From an uncultured Gemmatimonadaceae bacterium (lineage in GTDB: Bacteria; Gemmatimonadota; Gemmatimonadetes; Gemmatimonadales; Gemmatimonadaceae), in NCBI GenBank assembly GCA_963740355.1, contig CAVUDW010000003.1:2304001-2368000 (forward strand): 64,000 bases of DNA, written 5' to 3'. The position numbers and the translations under genes were made by a program. Shown piece by piece: positions 23,940 to 41,307 of the stretch. The notes beneath the pieces are model-generated. The model was not told where the DNA came from, ran no database searches, and saw nothing but the letters and a program-made list of their open reading frames with translations. Each line of letters starts with the position of its first letter. Position 1 is the stretch's first letter.

Positions 23940-24046
23940 GGCTGACGGAACAGGGTTCTGTGAAGATGCGGCGGTCGGGTTTCGATCCTGAAGTTGTCCT
24001 GCTCACAATCTCCGCGCCGCTGTGTCAGCAGCAACCAGGGTGAGGC
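23940..24046 (-). repeat. attC (degenerate, most distal)
   Basis: Family motifs cagggttctg, cctgctcacaat and tcagcagcaaccaggg retained; both cores mutated (GTCAGCC and GCCTCAC). Confidence 0.75.
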
Positions 24047-24097
24047 TGCAGTGCGACACCGAGCGCCGATTGACTGGCAGTCTTCGTGAATTCCGTT

Positions 24098-24327
24098 TTA
24101 GTCGCCGCGCTGCAAGTACTTCTCGAACACTCTCGACTCCGCTCTAGGCCCGCAGTGGTGAGCTCGACGGACTTCGCGCGACCGCGCGGATTGCAGATCA
24201 ATCCCTGCTGCTCGAGGAGTGCCAACACATCCCAGCTGTGCCCCTTCCATGCCCGATTCGTATCGTGCAACGTGAGATGTAGCAATGCAAGCACGAGTTC
24301 CGCCGCCTTCTCTTCGTCATACGACAC
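24098..24327 (-). pseudogene. DUF6429-like protein, frameshifted near the C-terminus
   Basis: VLALLHLTLHD...RAWKG.SWD...NPRGRAKSVELT; adding one base near 24130 restores LFEKYLQRGD*. Confidence 0.65.
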
Positions 24328-25011
24328 ACGGCCTCCGCGATTGACCTGCTGATCGAACGACGTTCCACGACACCACTTATGGAAATGTCATTCCGCTCGC
24401 GTTGCAAGCACAACTATTTGTACAGCGCTGAACTTCGGGCTGTCGGCTGGGTGGCAGAGCGCAAAGGCGACAGAGGCGAGGCGCTGTTCGCTCTCCGCGC
24501 TGAAACTCCGGGGAATGCAAGTCCAAGGCTCGATCAGGCCGCCGCCAAGGCTTGCTCCCGCGTGGAGGTGGGACGTCGCCGGACCATGCGCGCGCTACGA
24601 CGTAGCCGCGCCCGCTGAGGGTGACGATGCCCGCTACGGCGCGCGGAATCCCGTCGCACTCGAACGGCTGACCTACAACTATCCCGACTGCCGACATCGA
24701 CACCGGAATCGAGGACCTGCACCGCATGGCTCTCCTCAATTGTTCGTCGCGTAGATGCGTGCAGGCGCGACGGCGTCGGCGACACGTCGAACAATTCCCG
24801 CGGCGACATCGAGAGCCCGACATCAGCGAGGCAGTCAGACGACGTGGTCGATGGACTGCAGCTCGCGCGAACACGGACGAGGTGCGCCAGAGTGTGGTAC
24901 ACAGACTCAGGTCACGCATGACGGGTGTACACGCATTACGCTTCCGGGGACAGCGGAGCGGTTCCCGGCCCATCGGCCCGTCAATCCTCCGTCCACACGG
25001 AGGCACGTTCC

Positions 25012-25659
25012 ATGCGACGTTTCGTATCACTCCTCGCACTGTGCGCCTGCGTTCCAGCCGCGGCGCACGCTGGTGACCTGCAGCCCGGCCACGGGATTCT
25101 CGAGTCGATCGTCAGTGACGCCCCGGGTGCGTCGGGGTTCGCCTGGCTTCTGGACGACGGGATCGGCGCGTCGAGCGGCCGTCGCACCGGCATCGCGCCC
25201 GAATTCTGCTTGGGCGTCTGCACCTACAACTTCTCGAACAGCTTTGCGAACAGCCTGCTCGCAGGGACCACGAGTTCGGGTGAGTACACGGCGTTTGCAA
25301 GTTTCGTGTTCAGCGGCCCGTCAGTCGAAGCGCGTGCATGCCCGGTGGAATGCCAGCCCGGCGCGTTTGTCTACTCGGCCACCTGGGCAGACGTCCCGAT
25401 CACCATGACGGGCCAGGTGGACCTGGCCTCGAACGTCGATCCGCGCGTGATCCTTCGCTTCGTGATCGCCGGCTCAGGCATGGCACGGGCGCAGACGTTC
25501 CTGTACCCGAATCAGCCAGCCACCTTCAGCTACCGCCAGCTTCGCTACGATTTCAGGTACGACATCGTACCAGAACCACGGGCCATCATGCTCGTGCTCG
25601 TCGGCATGATGGTGCTCGGCGCGTGGCGACTGCGCGTACGCGTGCGCGCGGCCCAGTGA
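25012..25659 (+). CDS. PEP-CTERM sorting-domain protein (paralog 1)
   Basis: GGAGG RBS, AHA signal peptide, VPEPR + TM helix + basic tail. Confidence 0.85.
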   Translation: MRRFVSLLALCACVPAAAHAGDLQPGHGILESIVSDAPGASGFAWLLDDGIGASSGRRTGIAPEFCLGVCTYNFSNSFANSLLAGTTSSGEYTAFASFVFSGPSVEARACPVECQPGAFVYSATWADVPITMTGQVDLASNVDPRVILRFVIAGSGMARAQTFLYPNQPATFSYRQLRYDFRYDIVPEPRAIMLVLVGMMVLGAWRLRVRVRAAQ

Positions 25660-26040
25660 GTCGCTGCTCGCCCCTGACCGGTCGTGTCGGTGGGCGTAGT
25701 GAATACTGGGGCTCGGGCGATTATGTGGTCGCGTTCGCACTTCCCTGACGGTCGCGCCCGCACCCTGCCCCCGTCACGCCCTTTCCGGCTGTAGAACAGC
25801 AGCGGCCGACGTGCTGGCTGCCGCCTGTGTGCAAGGGAAATGCGCACACCCGTGTTTGGGCTGTCTGGAACTTCGTTCAGAGCCAACAACCTCGAGCGAT
25901 GAACGAATGCTCTAGTCGAGTGTGGTGACGCCACGCCATCGCGGGCAGACCGCATCGACATGCGCTACGCTTCAATGACCAACATGCTCGCACGCGCACC
26001 GCGAGCCATGGCGACCACTGTCCACAAGGAGATGCTCCGC

Positions 26041-26688
26041 ATGCGACGCGTCACCGCACTTCTCGCGATCTGCGCCATCCTTCCCGTGGCGGCACATGCC
26101 GGCGATTTTCAGCCTGGCCGCGGGTTTCTGGAGTCGCTTCGGGCTCCATTGCCTCGATACGCATGGTCGATTGCCGATGGGATCTCGTTCACCGACCGTT
26201 ACGGACCCGGCATCGCGCCCGGGGATTGTGTGGGTGTCTGTCCATACAATTTCTCGAATGACTTTTGGGGGGTCACCGAATCGGGTGACTATCAGGTCCA
26301 GGTATTTCTCCACTTCAGCGGGCCGACCGTCACGGCGATCACGAGGTGCGGCCCATACGGGTGTCCGCCCGATCACGTTTTCGGCTCCTACGCGAACGAC
26401 TGGGCGGACGTCCCGATCACGTTGACAGGGGAGGTGCACCTGATCTCGCGCATAGATCCCTTCGTCATCTTCCATTACCTCATTGCAGGATCCGGGACGG
26501 CTCGGGCGGAGACGCGTCAGTTCGCGGTGAATGAGGGCGAGTCCCATGACTACAACCTGCTCCGGTACGAATTCACGTACGACGTGGTGCCGGAGCCGCG
26601 TACCGCAGCGCTGTTCCTCTTCGGCACGATCGCGATCGGTGCCACCAGCCTGACACTGCGACGTCGGCGCGGCGCGGCGCGCGCCTGA
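26041..26688 (+). CDS. PEP-CTERM sorting-domain protein (paralog 2)
   Basis: AAGGAG RBS, AHA signal peptide, VPEPR + TM helix + RRRR; colinear with paralog 1. Confidence 0.85.
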   Translation: MRRVTALLAICAILPVAAHAGDFQPGRGFLESLRAPLPRYAWSIADGISFTDRYGPGIAPGDCVGVCPYNFSNDFWGVTESGDYQVQVFLHFSGPTVTAITRCGPYGCPPDHVFGSYANDWADVPITLTGEVHLISRIDPFVIFHYLIAGSGTARAETRQFAVNEGESHDYNLLRYEFTYDVVPEPRTAALFLFGTIAIGATSLTLRRRRGAARA

Positions 26689-27209
26689 TCGTGTTCGTGC
26701 GTGCGTCGCTCGCGCACCCTGACAGTGCACCGACAGATGTCGTCATTCCGCGGGCGCAGGCAGCCGCCTTGTTCACGCTGATCGGCACGTCGAACGGCTG
26801 ACCTACGACCGAGCCGCCACGGCGGTGACGTACCGGTCGGAGTGGCCGGCCTCGCAGGTTGCGAGCACCGCATCAAGATTGGCCACTCGCGACAGGTCTT
26901 TGTCGATTTTGACCGACATTGGGACTGGTGCGTAGTACGCATCACCACGACGCTGAATCGTGACACCCTTCGTGCACAAACTCGCTACCTTCCCGTCCTC
27001 AACGACGAGAATGCCTAGGTGGTCAAGGTCAAGCGTGAGCGCCTCGCAGTACCCAGCATTGAGGCGTAAAGCTCCTGCGCTAAGCGGCGCGACTCACCAG
27101 CGATCGCCGAGCGTATCAGCTGCGTGCTAGGAACGCGGCAACTCTGCGGGCGTCTGCAATCGGCGTTGACGGCGACCATTGCGCCATCTGGTGGACTTGG
27201 TTGATAGCT

Positions 27210-27305
27210 CGCTAACGAGACAGGGTTCTGCTGCAATGCGGCCACGAGATGGCCCGCCCGCTCACGATATCTCGATCGCATTGTCGGCAGCAACCGGCGT
27301 TAGGC
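27210..27305 (-). repeat. attC
   Basis: cgctaacgagacagggttctgctgc...gcagcaaccggcgttaggc, 96 bp. Confidence 0.9.
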
Positions 27306-27406
27306 GCGGAAGGGGTCATGCCCGCTTCGCCCGGTACCAGAGTAGAACAGCCGCATGAACAAGCGTTGCCAAATCACGTGCGCACTGAGCCCCATCACGC
27401 AGCACG

Positions 27407-28180
27407 TTAGTACAGTCCGGCGAAGGTGTGACCCACCCAAGCGAGGCCGCGGGCGAGCGACTGACCAACGCCAGACGAGGCGCCTAGCCATGCGCTGACC
27501 TCGACAACGAGGCAGATCGCCAACGCCAGCCAGTACGCCCGGTGGACTCGCCGCTCGCGAAAAGCATCGTACCCGATGCCGCCGAGGATGAACATGTTGG
27601 TCGCCAGAATGCCTGCGGGCGTCGCCCAATCCACGGGACCGAACATCGTCATCACGATGCGAAACCCGGCAGCCCCCAGCCCGGCCGCGCCTGCCACCAG
27701 CATCAGCCGCTTGTGGATCGCGCGGTTCCTGCGCAGGACGATCGCTACGGTGTAGAAGCCGATGAAGAGCACGAGCGTCGCAAAGATCATCAGGCCGAAC
27801 GACGACCAGAAGGACGGCTCTGGCGACGCTACCGCCGCTGCCATCTGCACACCGAGAACTAGCGTGCCGGTAGCCGTCATGACCGCCGCGAGCCCGATGC
27901 TGCTCCAGCCCAGCGTGCGATGCGTGCGCACCCGCCGCGCGTGGATCAGTCCGGCCTGGAGCGGCAGGAGGAGATACCACGCGAAGAAACTCCAGCCATG
28001 GAGATGCACGGCGGGCGCGGCCGCCGGATAGGTGCCTCGGATGTTTGGGCCGAAGTACGTGAACCAGAAGCCAAGGTACGCGGTGGCACTCAAGGCCAGC
28101 GCGGTCAGCAGATAGTGCGCCTCCCGCTGCCGGGAGGGAGCGCCCACGACCACGGGCACGGCATCAGTCATGAGCGCCAT
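27407..28180 (-). CDS. Cassette: multi-pass membrane protein
   Basis: VHLHG, HRTLGW, HKRLML and VHRAYW His motifs; about 7 TM. Confidence 0.8.
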   Translation of the reverse strand: MALMTDAVPVVVGAPSRQREAHYLLTALALSATAYLGFWFTYFGPNIRGTYPAAAPAVHLHGWSFFAWYLLLPLQAGLIHARRVRTHRTLGWSSIGLAAVMTATGTLVLGVQMAAAVASPEPSFWSSFGLMIFATLVLFIGFYTVAIVLRRNRAIHKRLMLVAGAAGLGAAGFRIVMTMFGPVDWATPAGILATNMFILGGIGYDAFRERRVHRAYWLALAICLVVEVSAWLGASSGVGQSLARGLAWVGHTFAGLY

Positions 28181-28268
28181 ACGTCACGCAGGCGTGGGGG
28201 GGACGACACATCGGAACATCATCACGAGTGACCTGCGTGGCAAACACGAGACGTCGAGGTGAAGTAGC

Positions 28269-28412
28269 GCCAAACGAAACTGGGTTTTGCTGCACGGAGT
28301 CCTCCACGCGCGTTCCTGTTCACGTCAGGCGTCGTCGCCTCGACGGGTGAATGTCTGCGGCGACTGGACACCGTCCATACGCCCAGTCATCGGTCACCAA
28401 CCGTCGTTAGGG
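28269..28412 (-). repeat. attC (long, divergent, 144 bp)
   Basis: gccaaacgaaactgggttttgctgc...ccaaccgtcgttaggg; overlaps the stop codon of the upstream cassette gene. Confidence 0.7.
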
Positions 28413-28904
28413 GGAGCCCAGAACCGGGAGCGACGGATAGAACCACGCATGTCGGATCAGTCGGTCGCGGACCTCGTAGACGACGAGGCTGGTCTGTCCA
28501 CCGACGCCGGATGACGACGCATCCCATCGTGTTCGTTCGTGCGTCGTCACCCATGGCCCCGTCGCGTCGATCGTGCGCAGCTCCGAGCGCGCTGACGGCA
28601 CGGCACGAAAGTATCCCGAGATCATCCGCCGAAACGCGTCGATGCCGCGTCCTACATCGCTCAGTGAGTCGCCAGCCACGCTCATCCACACCACGTCGCT
28701 CGCGACCACCCTCATCATGGCGTCCAGATCCTTGGCATTGAACGCCGCCACGTACGCACGGACCACCGAGATCGGCGTGGTGTCGCGCGCGCTGTTCACC
28801 GCACGCTGCGCGCCTGCGGCAGCGGTGTGGCCGAGAAGCAGGATGACAAGCAGCATGAGGCGGCCTCGCTCGAGACCATCCAAGAGACAACGTACGTGGC
28901 TCAT
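28407..28904 (-). CDS. Cassette: exported SnoaL-like/NTF2 protein
   Basis: VVRAYVAAFNAKDLDAM and VYEVRDRLIRHAWFY; TAA stop lies in the attC R'' box. Confidence 0.8.
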   Translation of the reverse strand: MSHVRCLLDGLERGRLMLLVILLLGHTAAAGAQRAVNSARDTTPISVVRAYVAAFNAKDLDAMMRVVASDVVWMSVAGDSLSDVGRGIDAFRRMISGYFRAVPSARSELRTIDATGPWVTTHERTRWDASSSGVGGQTSLVVYEVRDRLIRHAWFYPSLPVLGSP

Positions 28905-28910
28905 CGCTCC

Positions 28911-29007
28911 ACCTAACGAGACAGGGTTCTGCTGCACGGCGACCGCACCTTCCTTATTCCGGGACACCAGCCGCCGGTCGCCGTGGCTGCAACAATCAGG
29001 GTTAGGC
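28911..29007 (-). repeat. attC
   Basis: acctaacgagacagggttctgctgc...cagggttaggc. Confidence 0.9.
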
Positions 29008-29032
29008 CGCCCGCAACACGTCCCCGACTGCG

Positions 29033-29233
29033 CTACCGCTCGCGTCGGGCGAGCGCTTGGAAGAAGCTGGGGCTCTGTACCGCGTCAGTGAAGTCGATGC
29101 CAACGATCTCCCACCCATCGGCGCCGAGCTCGTTCAAGTACGCCTCCAGTGCATCTCGTTCCTTGATGCCAAAGAAACCACCGCCCTGCACGTCGTTGGT
29201 GCTGATCAACTTGTACTCCCATCGGCGCGACAT
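29033..29233 (-). CDS. Cassette: DUF4177-like small protein
   Basis: WEYKLI...YLNELGADGWEIV; AGGAG RBS. Confidence 0.8.
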   Translation of the reverse strand: MSRRWEYKLISTNDVQGGGFFGIKERDALEAYLNELGADGWEIVGIDFTDAVQSPSFFQALARRER

Positions 29234-29239
29234 CGAGTT

Positions 29240-29450
29240 CTCCTGTGTTGTTCAACTTTGCGCGGGCGAGCCACCCCGATGCGGCGATGTCCGCACCGTG
29301 AAGATCCGGTATCTACGGTAGAGCGTCCGCGCTGGAGATGCTTGCCGCGGGCAGATCCAGCACTTCGCTGACCCGGATGGGCAGGTCGCGGACGCAAATT
29401 TGCCCACCACACTGGTCGGGGTTCACGGTAATGGGGTCCTTGAGTTCAAC
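29240..29450 (-). pseudogene. DUF433 antitoxin-like pseudogene
   Basis: ITVNPDQCGGQICVRDLPIRVSEVLDL...ALP*IPDLHGADIAA; in-frame TAG at 29313-29315 and no clear start codon. Confidence 0.65.
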
Positions 29451-29535
29451 GGTCTGCCGCGTGCGCCTCGCCCTGGTTGGGAAGGCTGGAAACCTGTCGT
29501 CGAACAAGAGTGCGCAACACCACAGGTGGCTGGCG

Positions 29536-29631
29536 TTCTAACGAGACAGGGTTCTGCTGCAATGCGGCTTCTTGATCCTACGCCTCCTCAACGATGGTCG
29601 GCCGCATTGTCAGCAGCAACCCGGGCTAGGT
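29536..29631 (-). repeat. attC (R'' mutated to ACCTAGC)
   Basis: ttctaacgagacagggttctgctgc...gcagcaacccgggctaggt. Confidence 0.9.
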
Positions 29632-30220
29632 GGCTGGCGGGCTGCAGCGAGATCCGAAACCGTTTGCCGGGCGTGCCACCATGACTCTCGGGTTTGGAAA
29701 AATTTTCGACGAAAATCCCACCATTTGATTCGATCACTCGCTGGGATGCTACGTTCGCGGCATCCGTTGTGAGCTCGACGAACGGGAGGTCAAGCGACAC
29801 GAGTTCGGGCAGCAACAGCGCGAGCGCGCGCGTCGCATAGCCGCGACGCCGTTTCCATGGTACGACCGAATAGCCGATGTGTCCGAGACACGTCGGAGGG
29901 AGCGCCGTCGTTCCTGGCTGCCACCGCACATTGATGGCGCCTGAGAATTCACCGTCCCAGAGCCAGCGCGTGAAGCCAGGAAGCCGAGGCACCGACGAAC
30001 CATCCGGAAGCACAATCGCCGGTCCGCGCGCGGCGCGGTCGACTTGCGCCTCGACGAATTGCGCCGGATCCTGCGCGATGCGCGCCAACTCGTCGTGCGC
30101 GGCGTCCGCCCGTTGCGTATCCGGCGACCAACCTTGGCGGAGTGCCGCGGCGTAGCTCGGTAGAAACTCCGCGGCGGGCCAGACGAGTTCCACGGTGAAC
30201 ACGCGCAGTGGTGAAGCCAC
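29588..30220 (-). CDS. Cassette: GNAT family acetyltransferase
   Basis: GHIGYSVVPWKRRRGYA and NVASQRVIESNGG; GTG start overlaps R' and the 3' end runs into the attC. Confidence 0.9.
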   Translation of the reverse strand: MASPLRVFTVELVWPAAEFLPSYAAALRQGWSPDTQRADAAHDELARIAQDPAQFVEAQVDRAARGPAIVLPDGSSVPRLPGFTRWLWDGEFSGAINVRWQPGTTALPPTCLGHIGYSVVPWKRRRGYATRALALLLPELVSLDLPFVELTTDAANVASQRVIESNGGIFVENFSKPESHGGTPGKRFRISLQPASHLARVAADNAADHR

Positions 30221-30314
30221 CTAACGAGACGGGGTCCTGTTGCAATGCGACCGCACGATCGTTCTCCTGCGCACGATACCTCGGTCGCATTGTCAGCAGC
30301 AACCAGGGTTAGAC
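30219..30314 (-). repeat. attC
   Basis: acctaacgagacggggtcctgttgc...gcagcaaccagggttagac. Confidence 0.9.
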
Positions 30315-30459
30315 CTCAGGCGCACGAATGCCCTCGCTCTCGACGGCGAAGTGAGCATGTGGCGATCAGCCGTACCCACACGTTGCCACAACCTTCCGCC
30401 GCCCAGCTATTGCCGCTGAACTAGTGAGCGGCGCCTTGACCGCGATCCGTTGCCAGCGG

Positions 30460-30807
30460 CTAGAGGTCCCACCCGAGGAAATGACGGACGTCATCTATGG
30501 CGTCGTAGGCGTGCCCAGAGACGTAGGTGTCCGGATCCAGGAGGGCCGAACGGAGGAATGGTTCCACACGCGCCCGGTCCAACTGCCCGAAACGCCGCGC
30601 AAGATGCCCAAAGCCCAGGATGGCGTTCCCCCGCACGTTGAAGTGGGAGTGCGCAGCCAGCCGGAGACAGACTCCCTGAGTCCACTCCAGATTGTCCGAG
30701 TACAGCGATGCGGCAACCGGCACGTAGAGCAACTCTGCCGGGTCATCCCGCAGGATCGCCGCTTCTGCGGCTGCTTCACCGAGAAAATCGAGTGACTCGT
30801 ACTGCAT
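30460..30807 (-). CDS. Cassette: small helical (HEAT-like) hypothetical protein
   Basis: HSHFNVRGNAILGFGHLAR...ALLDPDTYVSG; bounded by attC sites. Confidence 0.75.
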   Translation of the reverse strand: MQYESLDFLGEAAAEAAILRDDPAELLYVPVAASLYSDNLEWTQGVCLRLAAHSHFNVRGNAILGFGHLARRFGQLDRARVEPFLRSALLDPDTYVSGHAYDAIDDVRHFLGWDL

Positions 30808-30829
30808 GGAAGCAATGAGCTTTGCTGAG

Positions 30830-30925
30830 GTCTAACGAGACAGGGTTCTGCTGCAATGCGACCGCACGTTCCTTCTCCTGCTCACGGCACCCCGGTCGCA
30901 TTGTCAGCAGCCACCCGGGTTTGGC
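30830..30925 (-). repeat. attC
   Basis: gtctaacgagacagggttctgctgc...gcagccacccgggtttggc. Confidence 0.9.
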
Positions 30926-30950
30926 GGCCGCGCAAACGCTCGCGGCTTGA

Positions 30951-31493
30951 TCAATCGCAGTCGCTATACCCGGTGTGGCGGCCGCAGTGCAAACAGCGAA
31001 AGATATAGGCCACGGGACTACCCGATGCGTCCATCTCCGCGAACCACGATTCCCAGTCGCTGCCCGACATCTCTGACTCGCGTCGAAGGTCCGGAATCGC
31101 GTCCGGGAAGCGCGTGACGATCTCCTCTTGCCCGGCTGTGCCGAGGTATGCAGCGGCGTCGCCGCAGCAGACGGCCCAACGCTCCTGCTGCCATCCACTG
31201 AACCCGGGCGTTCGAAATGCGACCTCAGCGATCACGTCCGCGGAAGCTACCGGCCAAATGCCGCCGCCAATGCCGTCTGAGTCGGTGCACTCCGCATCAA
31301 ACATCTCGTGTACGGAGCCATCGGCGATACACCACGGACATACCGTGCCATGCAGTTCGTCCACGGCGTAGACCGGGCCGACGTACATAAACCCGCGCAC
31401 CCGATGGCAGCACCGACATGTGTCGCGAGATTGGACAATGCTTCCGGTCGCAATCGGATCCGGATGATGACGGAACGTAGGCAATGCTTCCAC
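30951..31493 (-). CDS. Cassette: CbrC (UPF0167) family protein
   Basis: LPTFRHHPDP, CPWCIADG, RTPGFSGWQQERW and YIFRCLHCG. Confidence 0.9.
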   Translation of the reverse strand: MEALPTFRHHPDPIATGSIVQSRDTCRCCHRVRGFMYVGPVYAVDELHGTVCPWCIADGSVHEMFDAECTDSDGIGGGIWPVASADVIAEVAFRTPGFSGWQQERWAVCCGDAAAYLGTAGQEEIVTRFPDAIPDLRRESEMSGSDWESWFAEMDASGSPVAYIFRCLHCGRHTGYSDCD

Positions 31494-31520
31494 GGGTGCG
31501 CTGCTCAATGATGACTGACC

Positions 31521-31616
31521 GCCTAACGAAACTGGGTTCGGCTGCAATGCGACCGCGCGATCCTTCTCCTGCTCACGATAGCCCGGTCGCATTGTCAGCA
31601 GCAACCCGGGTTAGGG
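31521..31616 (-). repeat. attC
   Basis: gcctaacgaaactgggttcggctgc...gcagcaacccgggttaggg. Confidence 0.9.
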
Positions 31617-31688
31617 CGCACGCTCACGTCCTGCCACACGATCCGCCCCCCCGGCGCCTGCCGCGTAATCGCCCGCCAGCGTCGAGGC

Positions 31689-32087
31689 TCACTGCAGTCG
31701 CCTCTGCAGATCAATGACGGATGCACGCCACGCATCGCCTTCGTCCGACTCAGCCCACAACTCCGCCAGCTCCGAACTTTCGAGCACCAGCGCCACTGCG
31801 CGGCGCGTGTTTTCCACGAGCTCGTCGCCAAGGTCAAACCCGGCCAGTTTTCGCACGTACGCGGCAACATCCGGAGGCAGGTCCAAGGAAGGTCGGCCAC
31901 GGATACCGGCGATGATCTCCGCGGCAGCCAACCCTTCCTCGCATACGGGGGCTTCGAGATAATCGGGCGCGAGATCCAAGATCGCTTGAACCGCGACTCC
32001 CGCCACGATCAGACTTTCGGCCTCAAGACCTGCGAACCAGTCCATGGCGCCGTCGTTCGCGAATGCATCGATGCCCCAAGTACCCAT
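31689..32087 (-). CDS. Cassette: DUF4259-like protein
   Basis: MGTWGIDAFANDGAMDW and SELAELWAES...DLQRRL. Confidence 0.85.
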   Translation of the reverse strand: MGTWGIDAFANDGAMDWFAGLEAESLIVAGVAVQAILDLAPDYLEAPVCEEGLAAAEIIAGIRGRPSLDLPPDVAAYVRKLAGFDLGDELVENTRRAVALVLESSELAELWAESDEGDAWRASVIDLQRRLQ

Positions 32088-32110
32088 AACACTCCGGAAG
32101 GTTGATTGCG

Positions 32111-32206: not shown

Positions 32207-32216
32207 CACAGCCGCA

Positions 32217-32672
32217 CTATGAGGCCCAATCCGGCAACGGCGTGTCAGCGAGCACTGGCTGCAACTCCCGAAACGCATTGGATACTTCCGTGTCCCACGG
32301 CCAAAGACCGTCGCGGTTCGGATAGATGAGCTGCAGGGCGCGGAACGCCCGCTCCCCATAGTACCGAAGGGCTGTGCCAAGATACGCGGCGTGCTGGTAC
32401 TCCGGGACGCTGCGAAAGGTGACCGAGTAGCCCTTGAGAATCTCTGAGTAGGCCTCAGCCGCGCCATACGTTGCTCCGCCACGAATGTTGGCGACGACGT
32501 TGTTGAGCACGACCTGCGCCGTCTCCATGCGTAGGCCGACGAGAATCACTTCCGGATGGGCGAACGAGTCTTCGAGTCCGATCGTGTAGGCGAACCCTGG
32601 ACCTTGGTCGTCTGCGTCGATGCGCATCACGATCCATCCATGTGCCGCAATCGTCGCGCGAATATCGTCCAT
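32217..32672 (-). CDS. Cassette: DUF4262-like protein
   Basis: HGW, FAYTIGL...HPEVILVGL and LQLIYPNRDGLWPWD. Confidence 0.85.
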   Translation of the reverse strand: MDDIRATIAAHGWIVMRIDADDQGPGFAYTIGLEDSFAHPEVILVGLRMETAQVVLNNVVANIRGGATYGAAEAYSEILKGYSVTFRSVPEYQHAAYLGTALRYYGERAFRALQLIYPNRDGLWPWDTEVSNAFRELQPVLADTPLPDWAS

Positions 32673-32697
32673 CGGTGATCCAGAGGTTTGTGCTGTG

Positions 32698-32792
32698 GTC
32701 TAACGAGACGGGTTCTGCTGCGCGGCGACCGCACAAAAGGCCTCACGAGCACCGTAGCCCGGTCGCCGCGTCAGTAGCAACCCGGGTTCGCC
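32698..32792 (-). repeat. attC
   Basis: gtctaacgagacgggttctgctgc...gtagcaacccgggttcgcc. Confidence 0.9.
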
Positions 32793-32811
32793 GGCAACCC
32801 GCCCTCGCACG

Positions 32812-34026
32812 TCAGTGTCGACACCGCGGAATTTCGGCGGCGGTGCGCTGCAGCAGCCAGCGTCCGATCTGCTCTGTCGCGATCCCCGCCATGTCACCGC
32901 CGAGATTCTGCAACACGATCACACCGATCTTCTCCTCAGGCCGCAGAAACACGGCGGACGCGTGACCGTCCACGTTGCCGTAGTGCCAGAGCAGCGGCGT
33001 CGCCACCCGCGAATCGAGGGCCACCTCTCGAAACCAGCCGAGGGCCATATCGACGCGATGGGTGCGGTTTGTGGAATCCAGCTGCACTTGCGGTTCGGTC
33101 ATGCGGCGCGCGACCGCCGGGGCGACCACTGCGCGCCCCGCCGCAGTCGTGCCGAGGTGTGCGATCAGAAATGGCGCAAGATCGCGGACTGTGGACGTTA
33201 GGCCGATGAAGCCCGCGACGGCACCATAGCGTGCATGCACTGCTTGCTCGACCCGCGCGTCATCCTGATCCCAGTAGAAGGCCGCTAGCCTCGACGACTG
33301 CGCGGCGGTGAGCGTGATGCCGGAGGCCGTCATGCCAAGAGGCGCGAGCAGTCGGGCACGCACGAGCGGCTCATAGGGCACGCCGGCCACGCGTTCGACG
33401 ACGTGCCCGAGGAGCGCATAGCCATAGTTGGAGTAGTCCATCACGCTGCCCGGACGCGCGCGCAGCGGTGTGGTCGCGAGCGCCTGGTAGAGATCCGCCA
33501 CCTCGTACGCGTCCCAGACGCCCGGATCGATCGTCCCGGTGACGCTTTGATTGCGGCGATTCGGAGGCTGCTTCGGCAGGCCGGCGGTGTGCGTGAGCAA
33601 GTGGCGCGCGGTGATCGCCGTCCCCGACGCGTCGGTGGGGACGTGCACCGTGTCGGGCAGATACCGCGCCACCGGGGCATCCAACTCGAGCCGTCCGTCG
33701 GCGGCCAGTTGCAGTGCAAGCGTCGCGGTGAAGAGCTTGGTCACCGACGCGACGTTGTACGGCGTGTCAGCGGTCGCCAACGTGCGGAGCCGCTTATTGG
33801 CGAACCCGACGCCGTCCGCGAACACAAGCGCGTCGTGTACGACCACGCCGACACTGACACCAGGAATCCCAGCGATCGTCGCATACCCGGCAATTGCAGC
33901 ACGAACGTCCGCCTGAAATTCGCGCGCGAAGCAGCGCGCCGTGGCGGGCGGCGGCACGACTTGACTGAACGCGGGCGTCGCGCACATCGCCGCGACGAGC
34001 AGCCCTCGTCTGACGCGTGGCCACAT
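32812..34026 (-). CDS. Cassette: serine hydrolase (beta-lactamase-like family)
   Basis: SVTK (SxxK), YSN and HYG motifs; LLTHTAGL; signal peptide. Confidence 0.9.
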   Translation of the reverse strand: MWPRVRRGLLVAAMCATPAFSQVVPPPATARCFAREFQADVRAAIAGYATIAGIPGVSVGVVVHDALVFADGVGFANKRLRTLATADTPYNVASVTKLFTATLALQLAADGRLELDAPVARYLPDTVHVPTDASGTAITARHLLTHTAGLPKQPPNRRNQSVTGTIDPGVWDAYEVADLYQALATTPLRARPGSVMDYSNYGYALLGHVVERVAGVPYEPLVRARLLAPLGMTASGITLTAAQSSRLAAFYWDQDDARVEQAVHARYGAVAGFIGLTSTVRDLAPFLIAHLGTTAAGRAVVAPAVARRMTEPQVQLDSTNRTHRVDMALGWFREVALDSRVATPLLWHYGNVDGHASAVFLRPEEKIGVIVLQNLGGDMAGIATEQIGRWLLQRTAAEIPRCRH

Positions 34027-34107
34027 GGGTCGGTGCTCCGTTGCGCGGGAAGGGGAGAGGCGGCGCGGCGCGTGGCGAGAACTCCCAAACACACTTGATG
34101 CTTTGCT

Positions 34108-34204
34108 GGCTAACGGAACGGGGCTCTGCTGCGCGGCGACCGCACAAAAGGTCCGCCTGATCACAATATTCCGATCGCCGTGTCAGCAGCAACCCGGGTT
34201 AGCC
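34108..34204 (-). repeat. attC
   Basis: ggctaacggaacggggctctgctgc...gcagcaacccgggttagcc. Confidence 0.9.
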
Positions 34205-34390
34205 CGCCGCCTCCGTCGGGGCACGACGGAAGAGCCACCACGACCACGCCGTCATCAGCAGCGCCGCGACGGTGGTAATCGCGAACATCGGACTGCGGGC
34301 GACCGACGTCCCTTCTTCTACGACTCGCGCCACGTGAGCGAGCACCAGCAGGAAGTACAACACACCGGATAGCACAAGATACGAGCGCAT
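34199..34390 (-). CDS. Cassette: small 2-TM membrane protein
   Basis: MRSYLVLSGVLYFLLVLAHVAR; GAGG RBS; TAA stop in the attC R'' box. Confidence 0.7.
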   Translation of the reverse strand: MRSYLVLSGVLYFLLVLAHVARVVEEGTSVARSPMFAITTVAALLMTAWSWWLFRRAPTEAAG

Positions 34391-34397
34391 GCTCACC

Positions 34398-34826
34398 TCA
34401 GGCGATGTGATCGAGTGGCCGGCCAATCTCCCAGTGATGGCCGAATGGATCGACGATTCGCCCCAGCAACCAGCCGTTGCGCTCGTCCACGCTGAAGACG
34501 CTCTCCGCGCCAGCCTGCAGCGCACGTGCGACGACATCGTGCGGAGCTGACACAACAAGAACCAGGCGGACCGTGGAGCCCCGCAGCGTTTCGGGACTGA
34601 AATTCTGGTGCTGCGGTGATTCATCCGTCACCCAGAACTCGGCCCCGTGCGCGGAGAGATGGGCCACTACGGCGCCATCGTCCGCGTCGATGCGAAAGAG
34701 CGTCTCCGCACCGAAGGCCTGCGTATAGTATTCGACGGCGGCGGCACCGCGACGCACCGAGAGCATCGGAGCCAGCTGCATGCGATCTACCACGGACGCC
34801 TCCGGTGATTGAAAACTTGCGCGCAC
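34398..34826 (-). CDS. Cassette: VOC (PhnB-like) protein
   Basis: AVEYYTQAFGA and GWLLGRIVDPFGHHWEIGRP; start may be the ATG at 34781. Confidence 0.85.
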   Translation of the reverse strand: MRASFQSPEASVVDRMQLAPMLSVRRGAAAVEYYTQAFGAETLFRIDADDGAVVAHLSAHGAEFWVTDESPQHQNFSPETLRGSTVRLVLVVSAPHDVVARALQAGAESVFSVDERNGWLLGRIVDPFGHHWEIGRPLDHIA

Positions 34827-34843
34827 CCTGGCCGAGCGAGGCG

Positions 34844-34935
34844 GGCTAACGAAAATGGGTTCTGCTGCGTAGCGACCGCACGATACCCACTCCTGCTCAC
34901 CGACCGCCGGTCACAATGTCAGCAGCAGGTTAGGC
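34844..34935 (-). repeat. attC (5-bp deletion next to R'')
   Basis: Ends gcagcaggttaggc instead of gcagcaacccgggttaggc. Confidence 0.85.
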
Positions 34936-35431
34936 GGCGTCGCGCGCGCTCGCAGCATCGAGCAGCTTCGCGAAGATTACCTTCCCGTCACCAACCGCGT
35001 AGAAGTCCGGAATCTGGCCGCACTCGTGGTACCCACGTTGCCGGTAAAAATGACGCGCTCGATCGAGCGGCGGCAGGGCACTCGTTTCGATAATGAGTAG
35101 CCGGCCACCATTTGATGTGACCTGTGCCTCAACGTAGTCGAGTAGCGCGCGCCCGACGCCTTGTCCATGCGATGCCGGGATGACACCGATCCACCACAAG
35201 TTCCACACCTGTTCCGCGTACGCGTCTGGCGCGAAGTACACCCAGCCTTCTGGTGTGCGATCCGCGCCAGCCGCCCAGACAACCACCGCATGACTGGCGC
35301 AAGTGTCCAGCATGGAGATCGGTGAGCACGGTCCCGAGCAGCGCCGCAGCGCTCATAGGCTCAAACAGGCCGGTCGCGACCGCGACGTCGAGTAGCGCAT
35401 CGGTGTCGGATGGAACAGCGCAGCGGAGCAT
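34930..35431 (-). pseudogene. Cassette: GNAT acetyltransferase, frameshifted at about 35300
   Basis: N-terminus (MLRCAVPSD...ATGLFEP) and C-terminus (WNLWWIGV...GQGVGRAL...IETS) lie in different frames. Confidence 0.8.
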
Positions 35432-35573
35432 TTGGTGTGTTGGGCTGAACATGAAATGAGCGACACGACGCTCGCCGTGTACACGCGCATATCCGCACAC
35501 AGCGCTGCCGGTTCCCGTTCCTTGCACGACCACCGCATATGCGCGGCAAGACTACGACCAGCACCCCCAAGCC

Positions 35574-35650
35574 GCCTAACGAGACAGGGTTCTGCTGCAC
35601 GGCGACCACACCCACCCCCCTCCTGCTCACTGACCGCCGGTCGCCGTGAC
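35574..35650 (-). repeat. attC (truncated; L'' and R'' lost)
   Basis: Family match stops after ggtcgccgtg and joins an ORF-like fragment. Confidence 0.8.
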
Positions 35651-35773
35651 AACCGCACTGACGATGGAGACGGCGAGGCAGAAGACCCCGACGAGAATTC
35701 CCGACGCGAGTGACGTGACTGCCACATGGAATTGCGACGAGCGTGGAGGCATTGGACGAATGTCCGGTAAGCC

Positions 35774-35867
35774 TGCTAACGAGCAGGGTTCTCTGCGGTG
35801 CGGCCGACGAATGGTCCGCCTACTCACAATACCCCGGCCGCAGCGTCAGCAGCAACCCGTGTTAGCC
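35774..35867 (-). repeat. attC
   Basis: tgctaacgagcagggttctctgc...gcagcaacccgtgttagcc. Confidence 0.85.
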
Positions 35868-36381
35868 AGCTGCCCACTTCGCGCGCAGACGTTCGGTGGT
35901 AGCGGTGAGCGGGAAGAGTGTTTCACGGGACGAGACCGATGTAAAAAAGCGGCGTCTCAGCGAGATGGTCCTCGAGACCGCGTAACTCCATGTCGTCCCA
36001 ATCCCGATCTGGGCGAAGAAAGCCCACAGTCGCGGCGAAGTCCCGAATAACACCGAGGATCGAGCGGCTCGCAGTCTTGGCGACGACCACCGTGGACATC
36101 GACGCGACTTCTGCGTTGATCCAAGCGTACTCCATGCGAAGCCGCTGCAACCGGAGCCGCACCAACTGCGGCAAGCGCTCTGGCAAGCGGCGCACGTCCC
36201 TGGCGGGCATCACAATTGGCAGGAGGGTCACAGAGCTCACGAGTAGCAGCAGCGGCTGGCGCTGCACGACGATTCGATTCACATACCAATCGCCGAGCGC
36301 CGTGTCGGACGAATCCGGCGCATGCTCGCTAAGCGGCAGGGCTATTGCAAGCTTCTCGGTACGCCGTAGCACAACACTCAC
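35862..36381 (-). CDS. Cassette: DUF6933-like protein, probably frameshifted in the A6 run at 35943-35948
   Basis: LGDWYVN, LLLVSSVTLLPIV and SRSILG; removing one base extends the ORF from the stop at 35923 to the TAA in the attC R'' box. Confidence 0.7.
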
Positions 36382-36394
36382 ATCGTCACTGGCT

Positions 36395-36491
36395 GGCTAA
36401 CGAGACAGGGTTCTGCTGCACGGCGACCGCACAAAATGATCTCCTGCTCACAATAGCTTTGTCGCCGTGGCTGCAGCAACCCGTGTTAGAC
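36395..36491 (-). repeat. attC
   Basis: ggctaacgagacagggttctgctgc...gcagcaacccgtgttagac. Confidence 0.9.
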
Positions 36492-36558
36492 GCCCGCGCG
36501 CCGACCGTCGGATGCACGCGGCCTGCACCTCGACAGAAGTCCCCCCTTTATCCCCGCC

Positions 36559-36957
36559 TCATCGTGATTCGGCGCCGGTCACCGTCATGCGAGCTGACCT
36601 GCGCCAAGACTCTACTGCCACCACAAGCGTGACGACACTGACCGCGCCGACGACCACCGCGAGCGTGTTTCTCGTGTGGCCGCAATCACCGCTAGTCGAG
36701 AACCACCACGCCGGGTGCAGCGATACCGCGCCAATGAGCAGGCGCGAGACGCGCGTGGACCGCGCTTGACGCTTGGGCAATAGATGCCAGACGAGTGCGC
36801 ACAACGCCGACAGCGCCCACGACAAATGTGCGGGGCGATTCATATCCGCAACGAACTGCTGAACGTCGACGCCCTTCGCGAGCGTGCAAGCCGCGGCGAC
36901 ATCAGGCACGGCGACAAGTAGTGCCACGCCGCTCGCTATGATATCGCGTGCGCGCAC
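36559..36957 (-). CDS. Cassette: membrane hypothetical protein
   Basis: GGAGGAG RBS then GTG; signal-like N-terminus, 3 TM, LHPAWW...GDCG. Confidence 0.7.
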   Translation of the reverse strand: MRARDIIASGVALLVAVPDVAAACTLAKGVDVQQFVADMNRPAHLSWALSALCALVWHLLPKRQARSTRVSRLLIGAVSLHPAWWFSTSGDCGHTRNTLAVVVGAVSVVTLVVAVESWRRSARMTVTGAESR

Positions 36958-36969
36958 AACTCCTCCGGC

Positions 36970-37066
36970 GCCTAACGAGACAGGGTTCTGCTGCAAAGCG
37001 ACCGCACAAAAGATCGTCCTGATCACAATACCCCGGTCGCCGCGTCAGCAGCAACCCGGGTTAGGC
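36970..37066 (-). repeat. attC
   Basis: gcctaacgagacagggttctgctgc...gcagcaacccgggttaggc. Confidence 0.92.
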
Positions 37067-37153
37067 CGCTGCGAAATCACAATGCTGACCGCGTCACCGA
37101 GTTCAAGCGCTGTTCTGCTCAGCATCGGACGCGACCTGTCACACGGGGTCCGT

Positions 37154-37630
37154 TCAGCTCCGCCAAATCGTCTTGCGTCGCTTGAATAGGAGGACCACTC
37201 TTTGAGGGCGAACATTTGGTTGAATTCCTGTGACGTAATCGGAATTGCCGAAATTTGGATATGCCGTCTCAGTCTCAAGGTACGATGTTGCCAACTCCCA
37301 ACCGTCCGATCCCAGCTTTGAAATTACCTGTGAATCTGGAGATACGGACGCTGGCCTGAGGGCAGCAGACCCCGTACGATCATGCCCTTCTGCGAGCACC
37401 GAAACAACTTTGTATTCCCAATGCGTTGCCGGGGCGAGCACGGTGGTACCGCCGCCAAGCAGCAGGCCGAGGAGCACTAAAGCGATCAGAACGTGCCCCT
37501 GAAGGCGAGAGATGGCAGCGGAGGCGTGTGTGACTGATGAAGAGGCTCGAGGCGCCGTGGATGCAGTCCCCGCTTCGGATGGGGGTACGCTGCCTGACGA
37601 GGGGCAGAATACACCGACGAGTTTTCCATT
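37154..37630 (-). CDS. Cassette: membrane-anchored DUF4177-like protein (start undetermined)
   Basis: TM helix, then WEYKVV...LGSDGWEL...LLFKR. Confidence 0.6.
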   Translation of the reverse strand, partial: NGKLVGVFCPSSGSVPPSEAGTASTAPRASSSVTHASAAISRLQGHVLIALVLLGLLLGGGTTVLAPATHWEYKVVSVLAEGHDRTGSAALRPASVSPDSQVISKLGSDGWELATSYLETETAYPNFGNSDYVTGIQPNVRPQRVVLLFKRRKTIWRS

Positions 37631-37686
37631 TAGTTCACGTGATCCTATTTGTACGTGCCAGAGCTGTGCACGCCGACTGGGGTGCG

Positions 37687-37783
37687 GCCTAACGAGACAG
37701 GGTTCTGCTGCGCGGCGACCGCACAAACGGCCCTCCTGATCACAATACGCAGGTCGCCGCGTCAGCAGCAACCCGGGTTAGGC
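37687..37783 (-). repeat. attC (most proximal)
   Basis: gcctaacgagacagggttctgctgc...gcagcaacccgggttaggc. Confidence 0.92.
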
Positions 37784-38555
37784 ACTGCGCCCGGACGATC
37801 CTGTACGGACGAGTCGTGCCATCGCCGACGGCATACAGATCGGGCCGGCTGCGCCATTCGTGAGCTATTCCGCGCATCAGCAATGCATTGTCGAGCTCGA
37901 CTGATCCTCGCGGAAAGCGCGTGACATCGGAAAAATAGCGCGAGTAGTGCTCCTGAACGTCGAGTGCCGTCACTGCCCAGTCCAGCGAGTGAAGCTCCAT
38001 CCCGTGGAAGTGATCCGGGTGGTGCGTCGCCGAGTATCCAGTCGCGCCGAGGGAGAAGAAGCCCGCTGCGGCGGTGAGGTTGGAAAAGACACTCGAGGCG
38101 GGGAGCTGATGCGCCACACTTCCGCGAAACGTTACTTCAGGTTCGCCATCGGCGCGCACAATGCGAAGGCCCACGGCATCCAGACTGTCGGTGGACTCGA
38201 AGCGTGCACCCGAGAAGATCCCTGGGAACACACGACCGCCAAGTAGGCGATTAAAGGCAGAGTTGGTGTTTCGCTGCGGGATATAGACGCCCTCGTGGGA
38301 CACGCCGTCGGCGATCCACTCCACCGCTATCCGGTGTGCCGCGTTCTCGGAGCCGAGCCCGAGCCACGCAGGAACGTGACGGGGACGGAGCGCGGCGAAC
38401 CGGATCATGCAGACACCGGCGATACCGGCACCACCGTACAGCTTCGGCCGGAATGGCTTCGGCAAAACGCGCTGCAGAACGTCCGGCGCCACCCGGTAAT
38501 TCAGGAGGATACGCCGGTCGATCGTACCGTGGATCGTATCGAGGAACAGCGACAT
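37740..38555 (-). CDS. Cassette: DUF2071 (YqjF-like) protein
   Basis: IDRRILLNYRV, GVCMIRF and SENAAHRIAVEW; ATG at 38555 is preceded in frame by VRILLDECR. Confidence 0.8.
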   Translation of the reverse strand: MSLFLDTIHGTIDRRILLNYRVAPDVLQRVLPKPFRPKLYGGAGIAGVCMIRFAALRPRHVPAWLGLGSENAAHRIAVEWIADGVSHEGVYIPQRNTNSAFNRLLGGRVFPGIFSGARFESTDSLDAVGLRIVRADGEPEVTFRGSVAHQLPASSVFSNLTAAAGFFSLGATGYSATHHPDHFHGMELHSLDWAVTALDVQEHYSRYFSDVTRFPRGSVELDNALLMRGIAHEWRSRPDLYAVGDGTTRPYRIVRAQCLTRVAADAATCVL

Positions 38556-38582
38556 CCGGCATTCGTCGAGCAGAATACGCAC

Positions 38583-38807
38583 TCAGCCCTGGGCAGCTTG
38601 GGCGACGAGGAGCGCCGTCCCGGCATCGAGCGTGGCCACGGCCTGCTCGCGCGTCACCGACGGGAAGTCCGCGAGAAACGCGTCCAACGTCTCGCCGCTC
38701 TCGAGATAGTCGAGGAGCGTCTGCGCCGGAACGCGTGTGCCGGCGAACACGGCGGTGCCGCCCATCACATCCGGGCTGCGTTCAATTGGGAGGTGCGTGA
38801 CACTCAT
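38583..38807 (-). CDS. Cassette: DUF433 antitoxin (VapB45-like)
   Basis: PDVMGGTAVFAGTRVP...LLDYLE.G...FLADFPSVTREQA; GGAGG RBS. Confidence 0.9.
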   Translation of the reverse strand: MSVTHLPIERSPDVMGGTAVFAGTRVPAQTLLDYLESGETLDAFLADFPSVTREQAVATLDAGTALLVAQAAQG

Positions 38808-38859
38808 CGGATCCTCCATCGGCGTCTGGTTGAGAAACCTACACCGGAGCCTGTCGGGT

Positions 38860-38892
38860 GTCTAACGAGAATTATACGGAACTGCGACTAAC
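38860..38892 (-). other. Candidate attI site
   Basis: Core GTTAGAC (38866-38860) has no attC body upstream; L-like GTATAAT 4 nt upstream; second GTTAGTC at 38892-38886. Confidence 0.75.
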
Positions 38893-39143
38893 TGAAACGT
38901 GCACCCAGGAACCGGTTCTCCACCACCCCCCGCACGCGCGAGAACGAAGCGGGCCGTGGCTCCGGTCGACCAGCTAAGTCGCTGCGGTTCCAGCATTTGA
39001 CGCACGCGGGTGGGCGTGCCTCCGAGGTTGGTTCTGCCGCGGAGAATGCGCGAGAAGCCGGTCTGTGGCACTATGTCGCGCATTCTGTACCGATGACGCG
39101 CTGCCTCGACAGAATTCTGCCGTTGCTCCGGGCGCTCGCACGA

Positions 39144-40193
39144 TCAGAGATGGGGCCGCGGTGCCCGGCCGGGAGGCGCCGGCGCGCCTGCGATTACGGG
39201 AGCGCCGGGAGTCGCCAGCGGCGCGGCCATGTCGACATCCAACGGGCTGCGCACACCCAGGCCGCCTCGGTTCAGGACATGCGTGTACAACATCGTCGTC
39301 GACACGTCGCGATGGCCAAGCAGTTCCTGCACGGTACGAATGTCGTAGCCCGACTCGAGCAGGTGCGTGGCGAAGGAATGCCTGAGCGTGTGACAACCGA
39401 CACGCTGGGCGATGCCAGCCGACCGCGCGGCGTCCGACACGGATTTTTGGAGGAACGTGTGGTGCACATGATGCGTCCGGAGTTGCGCCGTCGGCCCGTG
39501 CCAGTACTCCTGTCGCGACGGAAACAGCCAGCACCACTGCCACGCGCGCATGGCGCGGGACGATTTCCGATCGTACGCCCCCGGGAGCTCGAGATAGCCA
39601 CCACCCCGCGCCGCACGCATCCGAATCAGCCGGCGCGACGCCTCGACCTGCGCCGCCACGCGGTCACGCACCGAGGCAGGCAGCATCGTCACACGGTCGC
39701 GCCCACCTTTCGCGTTCCGGACCAGGATTTCACCGCGATTGAGATCGACATCCTTCAACCGCAGCGAACAACACTCCGCCAACCGCAAACCCGAGCCGTA
39801 GAGCAACATGGCCATCAACTGGGCGGTGCCATGCATCGCGCGCAACACGCGGTCGACATCCGCCCGCGATAGCACATTGGGCAGCCGCTGCGGCTTCTTC
39901 GCCGCAACGACACCGTTGGCCGAGGGCAACGGCAGCTCCAGCACATCGCGATAGAGGAACTGCAGCGCCGCCAAGGCCTGATTCTGCGTGGAGGCCGCCA
40001 CCTTTCGGTCACGGGCCAGATGCGTCAGGAATGCACGCACATGCTCTGGCCCCAACTGCCGAGGGTGACGGCGCTCATGGTACGCCACATAGGCGCGCAC
40101 CCAGCGGGTGTAGGCCTGCACCGTGCGCGGACTGTAGCGCCGCACCAGCGCACGATCCCGCAGCACCTGAAAGAGAGTCGGTGACCCTGACAT
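39144..40193 (-). CDS. intI: Integron integrase
   Basis: LLYGSGLR, KGGRDR, integron-specific insertion (LPGAYDRK...WQWCWLFPS...HH), HTLRHSFATHLLESGYDIRTVQELLGH, TTMLYTHV; catalytic R-K-H-R-H-Y all present. Confidence 0.97.
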   Translation of the reverse strand: MSGSPTLFQVLRDRALVRRYSPRTVQAYTRWVRAYVAYHERRHPRQLGPEHVRAFLTHLARDRKVAASTQNQALAALQFLYRDVLELPLPSANGVVAAKKPQRLPNVLSRADVDRVLRAMHGTAQLMAMLLYGSGLRLAECCSLRLKDVDLNRGEILVRNAKGGRDRVTMLPASVRDRVAAQVEASRRLIRMRAARGGGYLELPGAYDRKSSRAMRAWQWCWLFPSRQEYWHGPTAQLRTHHVHHTFLQKSVSDAARSAGIAQRVGCHTLRHSFATHLLESGYDIRTVQELLGHRDVSTTMLYTHVLNRGGLGVRSPLDVDMAAPLATPGAPVIAGAPAPPGRAPRPHL

Positions 40194-41280: not shown

Positions 41281-41307
41281 GGGACACTCCGTGTAAGGTG
41301 TTCTTGA

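Follow-up and report, generated by a model that had tools for sequence, protein, structure and literature searches.

A probable sedentary chromosomal integron of reverse layout in the Gemmatimonadaceae

Integrase, attI and the attC sites

The 64-kb stretch of DNA analysed here (the window) carries an integron on a 2.58-Mb contig: an integrase gene (intI), its attachment site (attI), and gene cassettes with their recombination sites (attC). We consider this element very probably a sedentary chromosomal reverse integron of the Gemmatimonadaceae, in which IntI would capture cassettes at attI and a cassette promoter (Pc) would lie near attI. The host is read as Gemmatimonadaceae because of the closest IntI relatives: 70 of the 80 closest loci are from Gemmatimonadota, with best identities of 72-76%, which bears out the non-proteobacterial host proposed in the initial annotation. 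Below, G000 denotes the window's own genome; the other G and L labels denote sampled genomes and loci.

The intI product scores 386 bits against the integron integrase model TIGR02249 (cut-off 265), the sole match above that cut-off in the host genome, and 152-155 bits against the XerC and XerD models, far under their cut-offs of about 330. Its top solved relative is VchIntIA (PDB 2A3V, E 1.6e-75). The alignment shows a complete catalytic set (R137, K162, H268, R271, H294 and Y303) and the IntI-specific insertion (about residues 193-245), which the two Xer proteins of the same genome lack. Judged by these comparisons, the gene encodes a genuine integron integrase distinct from XerC/D. The earlier assignment to IntI rather than XerC/D is borne out by the model score, the insertion, the relation to VchIntIA, the alignment and the tree described below.

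The attI-like site had been placed about 280 bp past the intI stop, and there it is: the crossover G (38866) lies 278 bp beyond the stop, with TATAAT-TCTC preceding the GTTAGAC core. A GTTRRRY-type crossover heads the array, after which the attI sites of congeners carry different first cassettes; AATTCTCGTT of attI is kept in congeners, and throughout the phylum attI reads AAT-N4-GTT. The TATAAT, at 38876-38871, overlaps the L box and is a possible -10 element, and a second GTTAG 26 bp upstream of the core is a possible direct repeat. The intI-attI spacer has no copies elsewhere in the host genome; the regions behind intI of sampled relatives gave one match, of 86 bp, near the cluster of attC sites lacking an integrase (CALIN) at 724-734 kb.

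Scanning the 64-kb window for a 22-nt motif of the attC right end gave 17 minus-strand matches, from 37710 to 23942. The plus strand gave no match, nor did the sequence 5' of intI. Thirteen of the 17 sites are full length (94-97 nt), with a mean pairwise identity of 74% (range 58-91%). The count, orientation and homogeneity of the 17 related attC sites initially annotated therefore stand, the homogeneity for these 13; the remaining four are damaged or diverged. Among these, attC5 lacks R'', attC6 is 5 nt short in the spacer/L'' arm, the sequence of attC15 is degenerate, and attC17 has diverged and measures 107 nt; they fold no better than shuffled sequences. Bottom-strand folding of five full-length sites gave z-scores of -4.2 to -5.8 for three and about -2 for two, and single R'' changes are present in attC8, 9, 11 and 13.

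The bottom strand has two extrahelical bases, C and T, 6 bp apart. With the spacers anchored on them, R'' and L'' are separated by 4 nt and L' and R' by 8 nt (4/8). Five to six unpaired spacer bases per arm and a first extrahelical base that is usually G are described for attC (Nivina et al., PMC5027507); the usual 5-6 nt is not found here, the controls reading 5/6 and 5/5. Spacers of up to 10 nt are permitted according to PMC7370490. Recombination efficiency of IntI1 depends on spacer shape (PMC2727003), and by analogy the 4/8 spacer could matter for recombination.

Congener loci were scanned with a profile of the 13 full-length attC. Among 63 congener attC rows, 39 are 4/8 and five 4/7, with 17 readable in part only; other Gemmatimonadota spacer types are 5/8, 5/6, 4/5 and 5/5, and 4/8 is absent from the 23 and 18 attC calls of two other phyla. 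In the loci seen, the 4/8 pairing seems confined to the host genus. The 8-nt L'-R' spacer by itself is not unique, 5/8 being the commonest type among Gemmatimonadota calls (48 versus 34 for 4/8). We likewise rejected co-variation of the 4-nt attC spacer with the 4-nt attI spacer, as AAT-N4-GTT occurs phylum-wide, including Gemmatirosa with its 5/6 attC. Within the genus, all 20 genomes contain matches to attC1; elsewhere in the family 2 of 196 genomes do, with only four attC candidates scored per genome. One attC family stands behind integrases of 53-72% identity that are spread over the tree; it is therefore the host genus, and not the integrase subclade, that the attC signature follows. This agrees with the taxon-specific attC models of PMC8352920, among which Gemmatimonadota are not represented.

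Eleven further attC-like sites of the same family lie away from intI in the host genome (C3:724756-734218, C3:839414, C2:1421395-1434649, C2:1692398 and C2:1978300-1979613), and an attI-like motif at C2:1979613 heads two of these eleven sites.

Table 1. Features of the integron and its flanks, in window coordinates
Feature	Position	Strand	Description
arsR-arsM	40303..41772	minus	sigma-70-like promoter 41772-41745; ends 110 bp before intI ATG; part of the fixed upstream locus
intI	39144..40193	minus	integron integrase, 349 aa; ATG at 40193, stop at 39144
intI-attI spacer	38867..39143	minus	277 bp; poorly conserved in congeners except at its 3' end
attI	38860..38898	minus	R box G/TTAGAC, 4 nt behind a degenerate L box whose last bases are AAT
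Unit 1	37693..38865	minus	gene for a DUF433 antitoxin (38819-38583); toxin of PIN/DUF5615 type cut to 8 codons; in-frame DUF2071 fusion (Pfam)
attC1 (type copy)	37687..37783	minus	R'' GCCTAAC, 4-nt spacer, L'', L', 8-nt spacer, R'; fold z -5.8
Cassettes 2-4	35774..37692	minus	DUF4177; unannotated protein; DUF6933 (Pfam)
attC2	37066-36970	minus	
attC3	36491-36395	minus	
attC4	35867-35774	minus	
Units 5-6	34844..35779	minus	200-bp remnant with half attC5 (crossover 35580); GNAT gene with truncated attC6 (34935-34844)
Cassettes 7-14, attC7-14	28911..34849	minus	glyoxalase-like + small open reading frame; serine hydrolase; DUF4262; DUF4259; UPF0167/CbrC-like; HEAT-like; GNAT; DUF433 remnant + DUF4177
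Cassettes 15-16	27210..28916	minus	SnoaL-like gene, degenerate attC15 (crossover 28275); unannotated 257-aa protein, attC16 (27305-27210)
Unit 17	23940..27215	minus	3.27-kb composite: two plus-strand open reading frames + DUF6429 cassette remnant, diverged attC17 (24046-23940)
attC-less tail	20312..23876	minus	six co-oriented genes: RibD_C, GNAT, YdeI/OmdA, DUF5990, DinB_2, DUF1801

Cassettes and the traces of their exchange

A cassette that travelled in circular form has the R' partner of its own R'' at its 5' end. R'' could be read in 14 sites; in 10 of them its last two variable bases agree with the 5' core of the cassette itself, and in 3 they agree with the downstream core. A permutation test (100,000 permutations) gave a mean of 3.1 own-core matches and p = 0.0001. 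The misses are units 1, 3, 14 and 17, of which 1, 14 and 17 have other features that suggest fusion or composite origin. This R''/R' bookkeeping demonstrates the polarity of the cassettes and the GTT crossover.

Cassettes are common to different species at 76-95% nucleotide identity, at different array positions. The cassette 12 protein is 87% identical to a G016 cassette product, the SnoaL protein of cassette 15 has 88% copies in a CALIN of the host genome and in the G016 array, and the segment 24641-24093 of unit 17 is 81% identical to a G017 cassette. The first 308-309 bp of unit 1 are 95% identical to an intact G005 cassette and 85% identical to the cassette that comes first in G013; in both counterparts a whole PIN/DUF5615-like open reading frame (ORF), with weak Pfam scores, follows DUF433 and is followed in turn by attC. 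A deletion at 38556-38582 of the window has cost unit 1 the PIN-type toxin after codon 8 together with the attC, the antitoxin being kept and the DUF2071 gene lying behind. On this comparison unit 1 is two former cassettes that have lost the intervening attC. A junction made by IntI is not supported, there being no GTT core after it.

Two statements of the initial annotation need amending here. It had all cassette ORFs on the minus strand, which fails for the two plus-strand ORFs of the last unit, and it called the integron intact, which fits intI, attI and 13 full-length attC and overstates the rest, four attC being damaged and units 1, 14 and 17 looking like fusions or composites. The two plus-strand ORFs (24925-26688), inserted in the last unit, are tandem paralogues, 46% identical, whose ends consist of VPEP, a hydrophobic stretch and basic residues, a C-terminal tail that we take to be PEP-CTERM-like. 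Neither has a Pfam or NCBIfam match, and a third relative lies at C3:943 kb of the host genome.

Of the other cassette products, the serine hydrolase of cassette 8 has a beta-lactamase fold and was rejected as a beta-lactamase, scoring under all 25 curated cut-offs shown. The 257-aa protein of cassette 16 is probably membrane-bound, and the GNAT gene of unit 6 is apparently split at its 5' end. PADLOC, run on 18 proteins, returned one weak match, that of the DUF6933 protein to PDC-S63 (E 6e-07), so there is no case for a defence-rich array. An Rfam scan of the window gave no match.

Beyond the last attC, the co-oriented tail genes run from 23876 to 20367, past the coordinates annotated earlier. 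Homologues of DUF5990 and RibD (44%) are also found beyond the end of the G016 array, and the tail genes are possibly old cassettes. A perfect 20-bp inverted repeat (20312-20358), a probable bidirectional terminator, separates the tail from a permease gene that converges on it. On the other flank, a cation efflux gene beside arsR-arsM has N-terminal His-rich repeats (41820-41900), where a public contig differs by one repeat unit.

The reverse layout in congeners and across the phylum

In the window, intI lies upstream of attI and all attC are on its strand, which confirms the co-orientation of integrase and array noted at the outset. A relative of the intI product is present in 45 of the 61 genomes searched (E <= 1e-40; G026, an unpublished genome on whose sequence none of our claims depends, is counted in this tally and in those of 301 and 196 genomes). 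In seven congeners (G005, G007, G012, G013, G014, G016 and G017) attC lie 3' of intI on the intI strand. The genes upstream of the window's intI recur upstream of intI in G006, G009, G010, G013, G014, G016, G018 and L109, and a co-oriented array is visible in four of the seven congeners with intI at this same locus. Arrays at the shared locus differ, with 47 attC-like sites in G016 and two in G014; in G006 no attC was found in the 3.8 kb behind attI. A fixed upstream locus with differing arrays points to a sedentary platform with cassette turnover. The recurrence of the locus in seven congeners and L109, together with 17 homogeneous attC, upholds the designation as a sedentary chromosomal integron.

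Several of the related loci deserve mention in their own right. Integrases of 53-59% identity also occur in the genus (L109; G005:C168, G012:C414 and G017:C112). L109 has one of these, frameshifted, at the same arsR-arsM locus in a different attI context, an arrangement that suggests platform replacement at a fixed site. At L040 (G014:C80) the integrase has Asn at the position of the catalytic Lys and only two attC were found, and at L038 (G006:C105) attI reads GTTGAGG; the G014 and G006 platforms look inactive or emptied.

We give almost no credence to the explanation that intI is co-oriented with its array through faulty assembly or through a single inversion peculiar to the window genome, for which little speaks beyond the departure from textbook integrons. 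Three public contig sets were compared with the region, and no single contig bridges intI to cassette 1; however, one matches 38884-39150 without differences, the same layout is present in the seven congeners with attC matches, and it holds for 45 of 46 oriented Gemmatimonadota integrases. Misassembly at 38.9-39.1 kb, which the initial annotation had named as a threat to its reading, is therefore unlikely, since locus and layout recur in congeners.

An IntI above the TIGR02249 cut-off was found in 128 of 301 sampled Gemmatimonadota genomes. We called attC with a family-independent scanner that made no calls in 382 kb of shuffled sequence. Applied to 92 loci, it made 141 calls (46 loci with a call), every one 3' of intI and co-oriented with it, and just as in the window no attC was seen 5' of intI. 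On four plasmid integrons of other phyla, one of class 1, it placed the sites upstream on the opposite strand; a fifth control, which lacked upstream sequence, gave no call. Counted by distinct integrase, 45 of 100 from Gemmatimonadota are reverse, one is canonical and 54 are without a call. The reverse layout is the rule in Gemmatimonadota (45/46 oriented integrases), and the idea that it is a rarity finds no support, as it has already been described and is the norm in this phylum. The phylum of G338 has seven reverse and five canonical loci and that of G342 three and nine, mostly judged from 1.5 kb of flank.

On a quick maximum-likelihood tree of 113 IntI rows, from which the 54 unoriented Gemmatimonadota rows were left out and which has no Treponema row, orientation changes twice, versus 14.5 times when shuffled. 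The window IntI falls in a 46-row group (support 97 in the Shimodaira-Hasegawa-like approximate likelihood ratio test, SH-aLRT) with 44 reverse Gemmatimonadota rows; one reverse locus is placed among canonical ones. The only Gemmatimonadota integrase of canonical layout, L143 (G130:C122), groups with the integrases of another phylum and is probably a horizontal arrival.

Reverse integrons have been described in Treponema (PMC3607928, PMC7691350) and in Chlorobium phaeobacteroides and Blastopirellula marina (bioRxiv 10.1101/427781). A review names a group with inverted integrases (PMC3575428), inverted integrases are reported as paraphyletic (Cury et al., PMC4889954), and typical Spirochaetota IntIs have been called reverse (bioRxiv 10.1101/2022.02.06.479319); in the accessible part of PMC2426708 we found nothing about inverted integrases. 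Gemmatimonadota appear among the taxa for which integrons are listed in PMC8618304. Searching titles and abstract openings, we found no publication on integron orientation in this phylum, most subscription papers being outside the search.

The element shares with the Treponema denticola type an intI that is 5' of attI and co-oriented with the cassettes. The likeness is one of layout; the host here belongs to Gemmatimonadota and the attC to a different, genus-specific family. Closer in host is Gemmatirosa kalamazoonensis KBS708, whose element is named with more than 10 attC in PMC9024848, the orientation going unmentioned in the part available. This integron, on a 1.1-Mb replicon, comes from the same family and has at least 15 homogeneous attC, a co-oriented intI and an AAT-N4-GTT attI; however, the IntIs are only 55% identical, and the Gemmatirosa attC are canonical 5/6 as opposed to 4/8. 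With the sedentary integrons of Vibrio and Xanthomonas (VchIntIA) it has in common a fixed locus, more than 10 homogeneous taxon-specific attC, the IntI insertion, toxin-antitoxin cassettes and satellite CALINs. There, intI is divergent from the array and, in Vibrio, under LexA control, whereas here the orientation is reversed, no LexA-type box precedes intI, and the attC have 4/8 spacers and C as first extrahelical base.

Expression, activity and significance

With intI located 5' of attI and in the same orientation, Pc cannot lie inside intI facing the integrase promoter. To judge from sequence, its seat is most likely the 3' end of the intI-attI spacer, and by analogy a separate Pc beside attI is at least as likely as read-through from intI. 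A fuller read-through scheme, in which the array would be expressed mainly from intI and intI from arsR-arsM, with arsenic or metal stress inducing both, is in our view unlikely. We found no intrinsic terminator between the intI stop and attI, so read-through from intI into the array is possible. The only clear sigma-70 match nearby on the minus strand precedes arsR, no LexA-type box precedes intI, and in G000, G010, G013 and L109 a gap of 75-110 bp separates the end of arsM from a co-oriented intI. That is 4 of 9 loci, so read-through from arsM to intI is possible and not conserved: in G009 and G016 the distance between arsRM and intI is 0.6-1.5 kb, and in G006, G014 and G018 no arsRM was found near intI. 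Also against the scheme are a weak hairpin with a T run at 40241-40229, one such site being expected by chance, and the finding that the separate Pc of Treponema-type reverse integrons is active in E. coli (bioRxiv 10.1101/427781).

The likely LexA box of the host is TTCGG-N6-TTCGG. A direct repeat TTCG-N7-TTCG precedes 23 of 25 lexA-family and 19 of 22 recA loci of relatives, and the host genome has 17 perfect TTCGG-N6-TTCGG sites, next to which four ORFs, picked by the look of their translations, are a Y-family polymerase and RecA-like, IMS_C and DinB-family proteins. This candidate box of the Gemmatimonadales stands before lexA, recA and mutagenesis genes; candidate sites include G000:C2:2522156-2522206 (L248) and the recA leaders L256-L278. 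Before the window's intI the best match has two mismatches, is at background level and lies inside arsM, and among 98 Gemmatimonadota intI genes one is preceded by a candidate box with at most one mismatch. The lack of a box before the window's gene and 97 of 98 genes of the phylum suggests control independent of SOS. A literature search by titles found no description of a Gemmatimonadota LexA motif. Chromosomal integrons of soil and freshwater have as a rule lost LexA control, a loss that shows a moderate correlation with integrase inactivation (Cambray et al., PMC3108266); that study looked mainly for the E. coli-type box, and the present comparison uses the host's own candidate.

Another explanation is that the platform is real and the integrase dead, the array only decaying. 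We regard such a frozen relic as improbable. The Ala beside the catalytic Lys, four damaged attC of 17, the single R'' changes, the fused units 1, 14 and 17 and the reported correlation of missing LexA control with inactivation speak for it. Against it, the frame is open, all six catalytic residues are present, attI is intact and 13 attC are full length, and cassette 1 shares 95% identity with a cassette from another species.

A number of observations weigh against our interpretation of an integron capturing cassettes at attI. IntI position 161, beside the catalytic K162, is Gly in 154 of 165 IntI and Ala here, and G161A could reduce integrase activity. The unit beside attI is a deletion product, so no recent capture is required, and the signs of recombination activity, the R''/own-core match and the shared cassettes, are indirect. 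The promoter scan gave no sigma-70 consensus match in the intI-attI spacer, and the TATAAT at attI is lost in most congeners. The LexA box was derived from sequence only, with the intI start codons of relatives extrapolated. As to the wider survey, the scanner is strict, recovering 6 of the 17 window sites, and more than half of the 100 integrases went without an orientation.

In the established chemistry of integrons, IntI joins folded bottom-strand attC to double-stranded attI. In the integron as we see it, IntI would cut at G/TT (38866) and recombine the bottom-strand attC of a circular cassette with attI; new cassettes would enter beside attI and displace older ones, and recombination between attC would excise them. 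Pc at the 3' end of the spacer, its -10 element maybe TATAAT, would drive the cassettes, to which read-through from intI may add, and the integrase would be apparently free of LexA control. The platform is inherited at one locus while its cassettes turn over and travel among congeners. The window copy, though well preserved, has aged, with damaged attC, fused units and a distal tail without attC.

As the layout is already in print and is usual in the phylum, the element is a good new example and not a new kind of system. The findings are all computational and leave the basic mechanism of integrons unchanged. More tentatively, and with considerable doubt on our part, we propose a very common, phylum-wide reverse integron whose integrase would be active without SOS/LexA control and without head-on interference between Pc and the integrase promoter (Pint), governed by another switch (here maybe arsR-arsM read-through), with, in the genus of the window, one host-specific attC family, its 4/8 spacers falling outside the usual range, serving several unrelated IntI subclades. 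If this is true, the host rather than the integrase lineage sets the attC signature, and the genus would be a natural test case for the making of cassettes. The leads that it offers are natural attC with asymmetric spacers, an attC family common to different integrase lineages, which bears on cassette genesis, and intact integrases without apparent SOS control. Polymerase chain reaction (PCR) designs and software that assume intI to face away from its array would miss or misread such elements. Rather than a peculiarity of oral spirochaetes, the reverse layout is the standard form of the integron in a phylum abundant in soils and sediments.

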